This document shows, piece after piece, positions 60,833-63,234 of a stretch of 64,000 bases of DNA. Source of the DNA: Candidatus Doudnabacteria bacterium (GTDB lineage: Bacteria; Patescibacteriota; JAQUNI01); assembly GCA_041644975.1 (NCBI GenBank), contig JBAZQX010000008.1:334-64333 (forward strand), read 5' to 3'. Position 1 is the first letter of the stretch; each line of letters opens with the position of its first letter. The notes under the pieces are model-generated. The model did not search any database and had not been told where the DNA came from. It worked only from the letters and a program-made list of their open reading frames with translations. Position numbers and translations under genes: made by a program.

Positions 60833-62200
60833 ATGCCGCACGGAACTTACGAGAGAGAGAGAGAGAGAGAGAGAGAGAGCTTCTCCCCGGTCTTCTCTTT
60901 CTCCAATCTTTTAAAGTCTTATTATAAATGCCGCAAAAACAAGCGCAAAACCCAAAGTGCCGCTATTTTTGAAATTAATTTTGAAAAAGAATTGCTGAAA
61001 TTAGAAAAGGAACTTACCGCCAAAACCTACCAGCCCGGCCCACACACCTGCTTTGTCATCACCGACCCCAAGCCAAGAGAAGTTTGGGCCGCTCCCTTTC
61101 GCGACCGCGTTGTGCACCATCTGCTCGTTTCTTTCCTTGAACCAATTTTTGAACCAAAGTTTATTTTCCATTCCTACGCTTGCCGCAAAGACAAAGGCGG
61201 ACACAAAGCCATAAAATACTTGCAAAAATCAATCCGCCAGCATCAAGCCCCCAACCAGTCGCTTTTTTACCTGCAAACCGATATCTACAGCTTTTTTATC
61301 AGTATTGATAAAAAAATTCTTTTCAGCCAAATCAGCCGCCACTGCCAAAATCCAGAAATCCTATGGCTCGCCCAAGAAATTATTTTTCAAAATCAAACTG
61401 AAAACTTTATTATCCACGGCGATAAAAATTTATTCCAAAAAATCCTGCCTCATAAATCGCTTTTTTACGCTCCAAAAGGCAAAGGTCTGCCTATTGGCAA
61501 TTTAACCAGCCAATTTTTTGCTAACGTCTATTTAAACGAGCTAGACCAATTTGCCAAACATCGGCTTAAATGCCGCTATTATTTCCGCTATATGGACGAC
61601 ATTGTCATCCTACATCAAAATCTTGACCAGCTTTTGTTCTGGCGAGAACAGATAGACGAATTTCTGCAAGACAATTTAGCTTTAAAACTGCATCCCAAAA
61701 AACAAATTATCCAGCCCGTTAAAAACGGCATCAATTTTTTGGGCTACATTACTAAACCCGAATATTCATTAAGCCGCCAGCGGGTGGTCGCGAGCTTAAA
61801 ACGCAAACTGCATTATTTTAACAAAATTCTTAATTCTCAAACTCAATATCAGCCCGAAAAACCAAATCCTCAAACCGCCTTGCCTCTCATTTTTCCCAAA
61901 GAAATTCCCCCGTTTGCTTTTCTGCAAAAGGTCCAAGCGACCATCAACTCCTATTACGGTCACTTTCAGCACTGCCATTCTTTAAAATTAAGAAAGAGTC
62001 TTTATTATCGCTATTTCAAAGAGCTAAAAAATTACTTAGAGCCAAAGGATAAAACCTTTGGCAGTTTCATTATCAGAAAATCTTACTTAAAGATGGCGAA
62101 AGGCGAATCGCGATTTGCTATATGCGCTAGGCGATCCGCCATTTGCCAACGCCGAGGAATTTTGGGCGGAAAACGGCACGAAATCGATAGCTATTGTTGA
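60833..62200 (+). CDS. diversity-generating retroelement (DGR) reverse transcriptase
   Basis: N-terminal LLKSYYKCRKNKRK, PREVWAAPFRDRVVHHLL, SYACRKDKGGHKA, IGNLTSQ (the DGR-type I/LGxxxSQ in place of QGxxxSP) and YMDD; a cognate TR/VR pair lies adjacent. Confidence 0.85.
   Translation: MPHGTYERERERERESFSPVFSFSNLLKSYYKCRKNKRKTQSAAIFEINFEKELLKLEKELTAKTYQPGPHTCFVITDPKPREVWAAPFRDRVVHHLLVSFLEPIFEPKFIFHSYACRKDKGGHKAIKYLQKSIRQHQAPNQSLFYLQTDIYSFFISIDKKILFSQISRHCQNPEILWLAQEIIFQNQTENFIIHGDKNLFQKILPHKSLFYAPKGKGLPIGNLTSQFFANVYLNELDQFAKHRLKCRYYFRYMDDIVILHQNLDQLLFWREQIDEFLQDNLALKLHPKKQIIQPVKNGINFLGYITKPEYSLSRQRVVASLKRKLHYFNKILNSQTQYQPEKPNPQTALPLIFPKEIPPFAFLQKVQATINSYYGHFQHCHSLKLRKSLYYRYFKELKNYLEPKDKTFGSFIIRKSYLKMAKGESRFAICARRSAICQRRGILGGKRHEIDSYC
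60851..60879 (+). repeat. (GA)14 dinucleotide microsatellite inside the 5' end of the RT ORF
   Basis: gagagagagagagagagagagagagagag read directly; encodes ERERERERE. Confidence 0.9.
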
Positions 62201-62288
62201 CATTGTTGTTATTGAAGTTGGAACAGGCGTTATTGCCAGCTATCCGCGCATTGTTGTTGTTGTTCTGCTCGGAGAGCCACTCCCAAAG
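62156..62288 (-). other. DGR template repeat (TR); adenine-bearing sense strand is the minus strand
   Basis: About 130 bp homologous to 63101-63234. All 16 mismatches have T on the plus strand (A on the minus strand) in this copy and C/A/G in the other copy. The minus strand is AAC/AAT-rich. Confidence 0.8.
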
Positions 62289-62374
62289 CTTTTGCCCCTT
62301 TGCTTTTCTAAAACCGCAAGCTATCTTTTATGCAAAGTAAGCTGTTTTTCAAATATCCTCCTTTGCTCAATGTC

Positions 62375-62437
62375 TGTCTTGCTGAATTTATTTCAGCATC
62401 TCCAAGGATTAGATCCTGAAACAAGTTCAGGAAGACA
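62375..62437. repeat. Family C hairpin pair (tgtcttgctgaatttatttcagcatc + gatcctgaaacaagttcaggaagaca) between TR and avd
   Basis: The same two-hairpin module recurs at 62978-63045. Confidence 0.6.
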
Positions 62438-62573
62438 TACCAATTCAGGATGGCAAACATGTGAGTCATCTAAACCTAAAAATGGCAAAGGAGGGAAAAG
62501 GGCTAAATTCCCCTTACTGCTCTCTTCTCAAACCCATAGGCTTGAAAACTCTGGCAGGAACAGAAAAACAAAA

Positions 62574-62963
62574 TTATTGCTTTGCCCATTTCTGCCAACC
62601 GCCAATCTGGCGGCCAATATCTTCAATTTGTTTGTTAATAATTTCCAGCTTTCCCGAGCTGATAATTTTTAAATCAAAAGCCAAACGAGTATGAATTCTT
62701 AAGGTTTCCAATCGGTTGTCCAATTTTTGCAAAAGTTCAAACTTTTTATCCGCGCTGTTTGCCAATACAATCAAGTCCAATAACTCCGCGCTAATTACTT
62801 TTAATTTTTCGCCCAAGGTATATTTATACTCTTTTTGAAAATTGGTTGTGGTTTTGTAAATTTCCAAAGTCAAAAGGTAAGCTGATTGAAAAATTGCAAT
62901 ATGATGATATTGAGCCATTTTATTTAAACCTAGGACTTCCGCGTTTGACTCCAGATTTGTCAT
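62574..62963 (-). CDS. avd: DGR accessory variability determinant (Avd)-like four-helix-bundle protein
   Basis: 129 aa; the pattern LETLRIHTRLAFDLKIIS...IEDIGRQIGGWQK parallels the Bordetella phage Avd C-terminus (LAMLRFWLRFLAG...IAEVGRILGSWI); lies between TR and VR. Confidence 0.65.
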   Translation of the reverse strand: MTNLESNAEVLGLNKMAQYHHIAIFQSAYLLTLEIYKTTTNFQKEYKYTLGEKLKVISAELLDLIVLANSADKKFELLQKLDNRLETLRIHTRLAFDLKIISSGKLEIINKQIEDIGRQIGGWQKWAKQ

Positions 62964-62977
62964 TCCAGCCTTTCAAA

Positions 62978-63045
62978 TGTCTTGCTGAATTCATTTCAGC
63001 ATCTTCATTTTTTTGAGGAGATCCTGAACTAAATTCAGGATGACA
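62978..63045. repeat. Family C hairpin pair located 60-130 nt 3' of the VR (in coding sense)
   Basis: tgtcttgctgaattcatttcagcatc and gatcctgaactaaattcaggatgaca. Confidence 0.6.
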
Positions 63046-63100
63046 GAATAAGAATGAACAAATGATTCAAATCATAAAATAATCAAATCAAACATAAGAG

Positions 63101-63234
63101 GGAATTATGGGCGGAAAACGGCACGAAATCGATAGCTACCGTAGACATAGTCGATATCGAAGTTGGAACAGGCGTAATGGCCAGCTACCCGCGCATGGCT
63201 GTAGATGAGCTGCTCGGAGAGCCACTCCCAAAGG
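63101..63234 (-). other. DGR variable repeat (VR) at the 3' end of the target gene
   Basis: Covers the last 42 codons up to the stop at 63105-63107; differs from the TR only at TR-adenine positions. Confidence 0.8.

Follow-up and report, generated by a model that had tools for sequence, protein, structure and literature searches.

Judged from its sequence, the locus analysed here is an intact diversity-generating retroelement (DGR) of a Candidate Phyla Radiation (CPR) bacterium in which the reverse transcriptase (RT) gene is aimed head-on at the template repeat (TR), and we think it likely that it represents a canonical adenine-mutagenic DGR organised as two convergent transcription units. 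Coordinates throughout refer to the 64,000-nt stretch of DNA that was analysed (the window), and the parts and their strands are listed in Table 1.

Table 1. Features of the convergent DGR locus, in window coordinates.
Feature	Position	Strand	Details
RT CDS	60833..62200	+	455 aa; stop TGA 62198-62200; Pfam RVT_1 E=5e-16
(GA)14.5 dinucleotide repeat	60851..60879	+	RT 5' coding region; encodes ERERERERE
3' stem-loop, GGCAAAUGGCGGAUCGC...GCGAUUCGCCUUUCGCC	62095..62147	-	9-61 nt 3' of TR; within non-conserved RT tail
ORF	62115..62672	+	spurious; over TR, RNA domain and avd 3' end
RT 3' end (plus-sense) / TR 3' end (minus-sense) shared segment	62156..62200	both	45 nt
TR (template repeat)	62156..62288	-	133 nt; 40 adenines; encodes LWEWLSEQNNNNNARIAGNNACSNFNNNNVNNSYRFRAVFRPKF
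Long-range helix P3, 3' strand AAAGGGGC	62294..62301	-	5 nt upstream of TR; partner 62496-62503
REP/MITE-like double-hairpin element 1	62375..62437	-	inserted in variable interior of avd-TR RNA domain
Conserved structured RNA motif R1	62487..62561	-	67.9 bits, E ~1e-18
bAvd (accessory variability determinant) CDS	62574..62963	-	129 aa; PF22296 E=1.8e-19
REP/MITE-like double-hairpin element 2	62978..63045	-	between target stop and avd start
VR (variable repeat)	63101..63233	-	133 nt; at 3' end of target gene
Target gene	63105..64000 in window, clipped by window end	-	stop 63105-63107

The TR and the variable repeat (VR) are offset by 945 nt and differ at 17 positions, every one of which is a TR adenine on the minus strand (T on the plus strand), with no drift apart from these; at random sites, with 40 A in 133 nt, the chance that all 17 differences would fall on A is about 1.3e-9. 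The adenine-bearing strand of the TR is thus the minus strand, the same as that of avd and the target, as the initial annotation had stated. Each of the two TR flanks is present exactly two times in the window, where shuffled sequences lead us to expect 0, and there is therefore one TR and one VR. We found that the VR spans the last 42 codons of the target, its stop codon and 4 nt beyond (in the 554-aa ORF), and that the TR codons are AAC-rich when read in the target's frame. A 31-nt stretch identical between TR and VR, with 3 unsubstituted adenines, precedes the last difference, where the TAA stop of the target in the VR faces AAA in the TR. No GC-rich hairpin lies directly after the VR and a REP-like hairpin lies about 60 nt downstream; in the available text of Wu et al. 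2018 (PMC5758913) hairpins after the IMH are reported in only 34% of DGRs.

The proteins fit this picture. The RT motifs LPIGNLTSQ and RYMDD are unchanged throughout the RT alignment (A1), residues I221, G222, N223, T225, S226, Q227, D255 and D256 are invariant (n = 25 homologs), and the RT shows both marks of the DGR clade, (I/L/V)GxxxSQ and YxDD, with related loci holding TR/VR pairs. Its protein is 100% identical to a protein (P0001) of a Candidatus Doudnabacteria MAG. On the parent contig the target is 554 aa long and would extend to window coordinate 64769; searches of the full target against Pfam and PDB sequences gave no match. The second REP/MITE-like element forms an inverted repeat of 69 nt with a second arm at 60512-60580. 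The plus-strand ORF over the TR had been dismissed as the TR read on the wrong strand, and rightly so, having no Pfam match and covering the TR, the structured RNA element and the 3' end of avd.

The convergent layout is real and characterises a whole RT clade. We observe the order RT -> <- TR <- avd <- target with RTs of this clade in about 25 independent assemblies, mostly of Patescibacteria and drawn from NCBI, ENA, JGI and Logan. The full RT(+)/TR(-)/avd(-)/VR(-) order is present in L003, L005-L008, L081, L083, L084, L086, L088, L092, L149, L163 and L165, and RT(+) followed by avd(-) in L001, L082, L090, L091, L093-L095, L161 and L167, in which the VR either falls beyond the contig or went undetected. 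In a neighbour-joining RT tree, built without bootstrap support values, the convergent loci form one clade; nested in it is a subclade in which related RTs go with a TR on their own strand (L002 and L004, probably also L009, for which we detected no TR). The architecture had initially been called unusual, which stands against the classical Bordetella phage layout only, since about 25 related loci share it. Comparison with DGR catalogues had also been proposed, and in these TR and RT on different strands are already on record: in the available text of Wu et al. 2018 (PMC5758913), TR and RT may sit on different strands, and 90% of the CPR DGRs carry avd on the strand opposite to RT. Given that opposite-strand DGR parts are already catalogued there, the present element is a variant of a known system.

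Within the avd-TR spacer, beginning 12 nt past the avd stop, we identified the motif R1, which consists of an outer GC..GC helix, a covarying hairpin (P1), the conserved strands GCCAGAGU + AGAGNGCA and GGGGAAUUUAG, and then the 5' strand (62496-62503) of the long-range helix P3. R1 was found upstream of the TR in 43 DGR loci. In one search it was placed between avd and TR, on the strand of the TR, in the window and in 22 loci of the clade (37-78 bits); L094 and L095 have it there too, and weaker matches (18-30 bits) in 20 more distant loci lie on the RT strand, upstream of the TR wherever a TR was detected. Covariation is directly visible: 92% of cells pair, 11 of the 14 pairs show compensatory change, and the observed score was reached by 0 of 500 shuffles, with 93.5% of cells pairing and 13/14 pairs compensatory on 43 sequences in an alignment fitted to the model's structure. 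Moreover, about 70 G-U cells in the 43-sequence alignment become mismatches if read on the other strand, which identifies the TR sense strand as the one that folds. For P3, a comparison of matched and mismatched duplex energies across loci gave a permutation p of 0.00035. An Rfam scan of 57000-64000 on both strands (E <= 1) returned no match, the avd-TR RNA domain included. On the other side of the TR, the 70 nt that follow it in the window fold with z = -3.2, and most convergent loci have a similar hairpin after the TR (mean z = -3.6, n = 14 loci); the stem-loop there is a candidate Avd-binding stem-loop, a candidate transcript end, or both. Pairing of the 40 nt upstream of the TR with the 100 nt downstream was marginal (p = 0.039) and is not relied on here. 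We also weighed a hairpin at 62041-62062, within the conserved part of the RT coding sequence, as an RNA element downstream of the TR and discarded it, as the corresponding codons differ in relatives.

A minus-sense TR RNA is supported by these features. The initial annotation had the TR RNA running antisense to the RT 3' end, probably within a target-avd-TR transcript; the orientation stands, with the covarying R1 on that strand in the avd-TR spacer, and as to the transcript, a target-avd-TR or an avd-TR form would fit. A plus-sense TR RNA was rejected, for its variable positions would be uridines, and the covarying R1 and its G-U pairs belong to the minus strand. Promoter prediction, which had been proposed as a check on both strands, proved uninformative: a sigma-70 scan gave 14 promoter-like sites against 6.6 expected, none of them in the avd-TR spacer, and a scan for intrinsic terminators gave no informative site in that spacer or after the TR.

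In the two-unit organisation that we favour, a minus-strand unit would comprise the target, avd, a structured 5' RNA domain (R1 and P3), the TR and the 3' hairpin, and would provide both template RNA and Avd, with the RT gene separately expressed as a plus-strand unit. RT and Avd would then work in trans on the minus-sense TR RNA, the RT copying the TR and misincorporating opposite adenines, and the resulting cDNA would replace the VR at the 3' end of the target. What we observe directly are the parts with their strands, the layout kept across the clade and the RNA covariation; that the first unit is co-transcribed, that RT and Avd act in trans, and what the individual RNA elements do, we infer. 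Throughout the clade only 15-75 nt lie between the conserved RT core and the TR, which leaves no space downstream of the TR for a 144-nt spacer in the style of the Bordetella phage BPP-1 element; a conserved RNA scaffold would instead lie upstream of the TR, and RNA further downstream would be antisense to RT coding sequence.

The RT is convergent with the TR and its last 45 nt are antisense to it, exactly to the base as first described. We found that the conserved RT core stops at about residue 416 (~62080), some 75 nt short of the TR, and that the tail beyond it (codons 417-455, about 38 aa) is not conserved, crosses the 3' hairpin and enters the TR. Among relatives the tails past the core range from 0 to about 40 aa and are unrelated to one another save where they read the conserved TR end antisense, as do those of P0011 and P0012. 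Because the tail that creates it is not conserved, the 45-nt overlap is probably a by-product and not itself functional: the RT frame would simply hit no stop codon until within the TR, and the added tail would not be under selection.

A functional overlap is an alternative that we regard as unlikely. Here the 3' ends of the RT mRNA and the TR RNA would form a duplex, which would either regulate RT or TR levels (through transcriptional interference or dsRNA cleavage) or give a trans primer or gate replacing the cis-priming spacer of BPP-1. Consistent with this, the convergent juxtaposition of RT stop and TR 3' end is conserved, the stop in relatives usually lying between 63 nt before the TR and a short overlap (-45 to +63 nt); the RT ORF enters the TR in the window, L007, L081, L083, L084 and L165; the P0011 and P0012 tails do likewise in antisense; and a long spacer could not be accommodated downstream. 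When the final 45 nt of the TR were tested for a cis-priming duplex with the 100 nt that follow it, none was detectable: matched loci did no better than mismatched ones (p = 0.73), in what is a weak test, as TR ends are conserved between loci. However, the extent of the overlap runs from 314 nt down to none, with gaps of 167 nt (L163) and about 1.2 kb (L092), and in most loci the RT stop and the TR are separated by a hairpin at which both transcripts could terminate. Moreover, the co-oriented TRs that accompany the related RTs of L002/L004 (and probably L009) indicate that antisense pairing is not required by this RT type. That the 3' end of a convergent RT mRNA pairs with that of the TR RNA to prime or gate cDNA synthesis is accordingly something on which we can only speculate, and we hold it to be quite improbable.

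An inactive relic, its RT turned round by a rearrangement and its target no longer diversified, also appears quite unlikely. A single consensus sequence cannot reveal ongoing diversification, REP-like repeats including the 69-nt inverted pair flank RT-TR-avd, and the RT is without an in-frame start codon in several relatives; yet the ORFs of RT, Avd and target are all intact and keep their conserved motifs, the RT here is in frame, the 133-nt repeat differs only at adenines, and the layout and the covarying RNA domain are kept across RTs down to about 50% identity. An assembly artefact, with the RT orientation or tail created by misassembly or sequencing error, would be in keeping with the position of the DGR at the end of contig k141_31134 of assembly ERZ27249422 (about 2.8 kb from the contig end) and with the repeats nearby, but is extremely improbable in view of the identical order and orientation in the independent assemblies from four sources and the recurrence of RT stops that abut or enter the TR.

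Returning to the two convergent units, the RT gene carries a further feature in its 5' coding region. The (GA)14.5 tract is the sole dinucleotide repeat in the 64-kb window and lies between ATG 60833 and the conserved N-terminal RT motif, in frame with that ATG, and thus the RT would be ON here. Within clusters of at least 90% identity we found RTs that differ by one RE unit (P0010 vs P0123, P0049 vs P0144 and P0104 vs P0149), and in P0127 a second ATG in a different frame is used. The upstream ATG is in frame in the window and L007; in L002, L003, L005, L083, L161, L163, L165 and L167 it is out of frame and the RT body is intact. In L082 the tract is in frame and the ORF is broken by a separate frameshift further downstream; two pairs of assemblies with the same RT (L161/L162 and L165/L166) have identical tract lengths (n = 2 pairs). 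A tract whose length varies, and which stands in and out of frame in relatives, suggests that RT expression may be phase-variable. The tract also matters for annotation, as it is the reason why many RTs of the clade are annotated as N-terminally truncated. Among contingency loci are the CT/AG dinucleotide tracts of Helicobacter pylori, which lie in the 5' coding regions of genes for outer-membrane proteins. Likewise, the available text of PMC3498834 describes 12 AG repeats in a type III methyltransferase gene of Mycoplasma mycoides. Similar to such SSR contingency loci, the RT gene has a perfect dinucleotide tract between its start codon and the conserved body, a tract length that varies among near-identical genes, and in- and out-of-frame states with an intact downstream ORF; unlike them, the candidate switched gene would be a mutagenic RT and not a surface protein or methyltransferase. 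If the tract does switch the RT, a hypermutation engine would here be under the control of phase variation, something of which we found no report in the searchable literature, and this would be relevant to how CPR bacteria, with their small genomes and dependence on surfaces, keep down the cost of mutagenesis. Joining these strands, we tentatively propose, while leaning slightly against it ourselves, that the clade's RNA scaffold 5' of the TR (R1 and P3) frees the RT to invert and become its own unit, and that the RT is gated by the hypermutable (GA)n tract, which would make hypermutation a stochastic ON/OFF trait of the population.

To our knowledge, a single phage element, whose template, spacer and RT are transcribed together, is the source of almost everything known about how DGRs work. 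CPR DGRs have reportedly been described by Paul and colleagues in 2017. Compared with the prototype BPP-1 DGR (mtd-avd-TR-brt), the present locus has the same components and logic, with the VR at the target 3' end and an Avd, a TR about 133 nt long that is rich in AAC codons and differs from the VR at adenines only, an RT with (I/L)GxxxSQ and YxDD, and structured RNA around the TR that would be expected to position RT-Avd. In BPP-1, however, all parts lie on a single strand (avd 3021-3407, TR 2887-3020, brt 1756-2742), the TR abutting the avd stop and a 144-nt spacer separating it from brt, whereas here the RT is convergent on the opposite strand, a 285-nt structured domain lies between avd and TR, and the gap between the TR and the conserved RT core holds a hairpin only. 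A search of the BPP-1 cassette with R1 gave no significant match. The locus likewise departs from the B1 architecture (avd-TR-RT, all on the same strand, with TR and RT start some 140 nt apart), its RT being on the opposite strand and the TR 3' end within the RT ORF. With the CPR DGRs in the available text of Wu et al. 2018 (PMC5758913) it shares a patescibacterial host, an Avd cassette, a single target and genes on both strands; judged on the text description there, it differs from their B3 type (TR-(avd)-RT with reversed avd) in its target-avd-TR-(RT) order, which puts the TR between avd and RT. Additional context comes from Handa et al. (bioRxiv 10.1101/2023.10.23.563531; Handa et al. 2024), who find RNA flanking the TR to be essential, predict Avd-binding stem-loops just downstream of the TR in 207/278 DGRs, and limit their upstream analysis to 40 nt. 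As with their elements, a stem-loop here closely follows the TR, and right at the TR 5' edge we observe a helix with the potential to halt cDNA synthesis. In their system the Avd-binding, RT-binding and primer elements lie in the downstream spacer and the stop duplex is formed by pairing between sequences upstream and downstream of the TR, whereas here the large conserved domain, together with the helix that closes it, precedes the TR. Since the clade keeps a convergent RT and has no room for a downstream spacer, it shows, as far as genome sequences can, that co-transcription and the 3' spacer would be dispensable for DGRs, and the layout suggests that the scaffold is likely to be the conserved RNA domain lying 5' of the template.

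The window belongs to a metagenome-assembled genome of Candidatus Doudnabacteria (Patescibacteria/CPR). The distance from the DGR (diversity-generating retroelement) to the end of the 191,576-bp contig is about 2.8 kb, and its reverse transcriptase (RT) is 100% identical to the Candidatus Doudnabacteria protein P0001. We found a single template repeat (TR) and a single variable repeat (VR) within the window, and the proposal that the adenine strand of the TR is the minus strand, as for avd (the accessory variability determinant) and the target, was borne out: all 17 TR/VR differences carry T in the TR on the plus strand and hence A on the minus strand, the chance of 17 random differences all falling on A being ~1e-9 given 40 A per 133 nt of TR. 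In the target frame the TR translates as LWEWLSEQNNNNNARIAGNNACSNFNNNNVNNSYRFRAVFRPKF and the VR as LWEWLSEQLIYSHARVAGHYACSNFDIDYVYGSYRFRAVFRP*. Over their last 38 nt the repeats differ only where the target stop TAA (63105-63107) faces AAA in the TR (62160-62162), and this reflects either an IMH/IMH* distinction or adenine mutagenesis that makes or removes the target stop; read-through would add 11 residues.

Features of the DGR and its surroundings (window positions)
Feature	Position	Strand	Remarks
RT ORF	60833..62200	+	stop TGA 62198-62200; Pfam RVT_1 match; LPIGNLTSQ (DGR-type) and RYMDD motifs
(GA)14.5 tract	60851..60879	+	perfect; between ATG 60833 and conserved N-terminal FSFSNLL
Hairpin 3' of TR	62095..62147	-	inside RT ORF
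TR	62156..62288	-	133 nt; adenine-bearing copy of repeat pair
R1 motif	62487..62561	-	covariance model, 67.9 bits
bAvd gene	62574..62963	-	PF22296
VR	63101..63233	-	133 nt; second copy of repeat pair
Target ORF	stop 63105-63107, extends beyond window end	-	554 aa on contig
REP/MITE-like copy 1	58249-58311	+	two adjacent hairpins (TCCTGAA..TTCAGGA, TGCTGAA..TTCAGCA)
REP/MITE-like copy 2	60512-60580	+	
REP/MITE-like copy 3	62375-62437	-	within avd-TR RNA domain
REP/MITE-like copy 4	62978-63045	-	

The initial annotation had the RT converging on this unit with its last 45 nt overlapping the TR, which is exact (62156..62200 is shared). In an alignment of 25 RT homologs, strong conservation persists until ~residue 416 (...FSSFIIK, about 62080), and the tails past it, of 0 to about 40 aa, are mutually unrelated with one exception, two Moranbacteria RTs ending ...DGTRYETGFHC, similar to ...GGKRHEIDSYC in the window. 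This likeness is the conserved TR 3' end read antisense, so the same overlap recurs there. The RT stop is placed variably in relatives whose TR could be mapped, at one extreme 63 nt short of the TR, in others 4, 6, 12, 45 or even 314 nt into it. This variability, together with the non-conserved tails, argues that the overlap is probably incidental and not a selected protein feature, arising from the chance position of the first stop codon; functional antisense pairing between the RT and TR 3' ends, a rival explanation, is not favoured. Unlike the overlap, the closeness of the RT gene's end to the 3' end of the TR is conserved, with 15-75 nt from conserved RT core to TR in relatives with a mapped TR; the outliers are L163 (167 nt) and L092 (about 1.2 kb).

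The layout had also been called unusual, and although the opposite-strand arrangement is real it is not singular, being typical of its clade. We surveyed 160 loci encoding related RTs, plus 7 added through exact-protein look-ups, scoring TR/VR pairs on adenine bias and locating avd by tblastn. The order RT(+)/TR(-)/avd(-)/VR(-) was found in L003, L005-L008, L081, L083, L084, L086, L088, L092, L149, L163 and L165, while in L001, L082, L090, L091, L093-L095, L161 and L167 avd(-) likewise comes after RT(+), and the VR lies beyond the contig or went undetected. In a neighbour-joining tree these convergent loci group with the window in one large clade, with a nested subclade (L002, L004, L009) in which avd lies downstream on the RT strand, a co-oriented TR being detected in L002 and L004. 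The neighbouring L021 and L029 have the order RT-(avd)-(TR), and more distant RTs, wherever both avd and TR are detectable, all show the canonical single-strand avd-TR-RT. That the layout is shared clade-wide suggests that it is ancestral to, and stable in, this mostly Patescibacterial clade. We likewise do not favour reading the cassette as a dead relic, and misassembly is very unlikely to be the source of the layout, which recurs across the loci of the clade.

Within the clade, the spacers between avd and TR measure 132-285 nt and have one motif in common, comprising GCCAGAGU, a hairpin (P1) whose arms vary between loci yet keep their complementarity, AGAGNGCA closing an outer GC/GC helix, GAUGGGAAUnACAG, and an 8-nt strand that forms helix P3 with 8 nt located a few bases 5' of the TR. 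The P3 pair is GCCCUUUU/AAAGGGGC in the window, and GUUCCGCC/GGCGGAAC, GUCUCGCC/GGCGAGAC, GCUUUCAU/AUGAAAGC and GCUUUUAU/AUAAAGC-type in relatives. Across 18 sequences 92% of pairing cells pair, versus 42-63% with the partners slid, 11/14 pairs show compensatory changes, and 0/500 shuffles reach the observed covariation score; moreover, P3 duplex energies are lower in matched than in mismatched loci (p = 0.00035). A single search with the covariance model of the motif (R1) gave matches of 37-78 bits in 22 clade loci, all of them opposite the RT strand and between avd and TR, with two further matches in L094 and L095. Weaker matches (18-30 bits) came from 20 more distant loci, on the TR's strand and about 70-240 nt upstream of it wherever a TR was detected. 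As these matches include L065 and L009, where avd is located elsewhere, the motif travels with the TR and not with avd. Over 43 matches, in an alignment fitted to the model, 93.5% of cells pair and 13/14 pairs are compensatory. About 70 cells are G-U pairs, at which the complementary strand would have mismatches, so the folded structure belongs to the TR-sense (minus-strand) RNA, in agreement with the earlier view that the TR RNA is antisense to the RT 3' end. The avd-TR domain has no match in Rfam 15.

Downstream of the TR, the 70 nt that follow it have a folding z of -3.2 in the window (mean -3.6 over 14 loci), and between the TR hairpin and conserved RT coding sequence there is no room for more RNA. 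Since this hairpin lies within the RT ORF and its U-tract is weak on both strands, we consider an RNA-protein element more probable here than a terminator; in some relatives the hairpin also resembles a bidirectional terminator. Comparing matched with mismatched loci did not identify a priming duplex of the TR 3' end with downstream RNA. Our reading of the scaffold is of a main conserved domain 5' of the TR plus a short 3' hairpin. In the mechanism we propose, target, avd, R1/P3 domain, TR and hairpin would form one minus-strand transcription unit on which the plus-strand RT unit converges, with RT and Avd assembling in trans on the TR RNA and adenine-mutagenic cDNA replacing the VR. Direct evidence covers the parts, their strands, their conservation and the RNA covariation, and from these we infer co-transcription, action in trans and what the RNA elements do.

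The (GA)14.5 tract near the RT start is the sole dinucleotide repeat in the 64-kb window, and tracts of 17-54 nt occupy the same place in L002, L003, L005, L007, L082, L083, L161, L163, L165 and L167. An in-frame upstream ATG precedes the tract in the window and L007; in L002, L003, L005, L083, L161, L163, L165 and L167 the upstream ATG is out of frame, with the RT body intact and without an alternative start. In the close relative L082 the tract is in frame with an upstream ATG, and a separate frameshift some 60 nt deeper in the RT (about 2598-2658; protein P0132) breaks the ORF, so the gene caller starts at an out-of-frame ATG. (GA)n is open in all three frames, read as RE/ER, and the variant P0127 starts translation at a second ATG, which lies in a different frame of the same leader. 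An in-frame (RE)n N-terminus occurs in 29 of the best 120 RT clusters, and 23 lack both tract and conserved N-terminal motif under a strict pattern; about 14 of these 23 resemble N-terminally truncated calls, and all four such calls tested have an out-of-frame tract upstream. Tract length varies even inside clusters of at least 90% identity (P0010 vs P0123, P0049 vs P0144, P0104 vs P0149). This pattern points to RT phase variation by strand slippage, and we found no paper linking this process to DGR RTs.

The four REP/MITE-like copies, of an element built from the two adjacent hairpins listed under copy 1, are confined to the DGR surroundings within the window, and copy 2 pairs with copy 4 as a 69-nt inverted repeat, 91% complementary, bracketing RT-TR-avd. 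Synteny of the DGR with the gene upstream of the RT (58350-60517, minus strand) is conserved. This gene is broken here into ORFs of 443 aa (with a CarboxypepD_reg domain) and 278 aa that occupy different frames, is called on the contig as a single 711-aa product, and corresponds to one gene of 683-687 aa in L165 and L167; a frameshift, pseudogene or sequencing error is possible. L163 has at this position a smaller 309-aa gene, without a Pfam match, that bears a second VR. The ORF at 59681-60517 (minus strand) has no match in Pfam and carries four tandem degenerate repeats at 60012-60379 (GYAW(S/G)EN.GWI.F; DNA repeat families D3 and D7), its product probably being a surface repeat protein. Elsewhere, Tandem Repeats Finder reported a 223-nt unit in two tandem copies of 82% identity (35334-35787).

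Architecture B3, printed as TR-(avd)-RT, accounts for 90% of 126 CPR DGRs in Wu et al. 2018 (PMC5758913), and judged by the text of that paper the window order differs. The same authors mention that a TR and its RT may occupy different strands. Cassettes with parts on different strands are listed in a 2024 survey (PMC11661182); from these two sources, opposite-strand DGRs are already catalogued. We found no discussion in the literature of what such a layout implies for the template RNA; these implications, the new RNA motif 5' of the TR and the GA tract of the RT gene are what make the locus valuable. In the Bordetella phage prototype BPP-1, the TR adjoins the avd stop and a 144-nt spacer precedes the RT gene brt, the spacer holding the primer, an Avd-binding stem-loop and part of the stop duplex (Handa et al., bioRxiv 10.1101/2023.10.23.563531). 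R1 is absent from BPP-1, whereas it is present in the window clade. However, similar to the 207/278 DGRs for which Handa et al. predicted stem-loops directly downstream of the TR, the window clade also has a hairpin following its TR.
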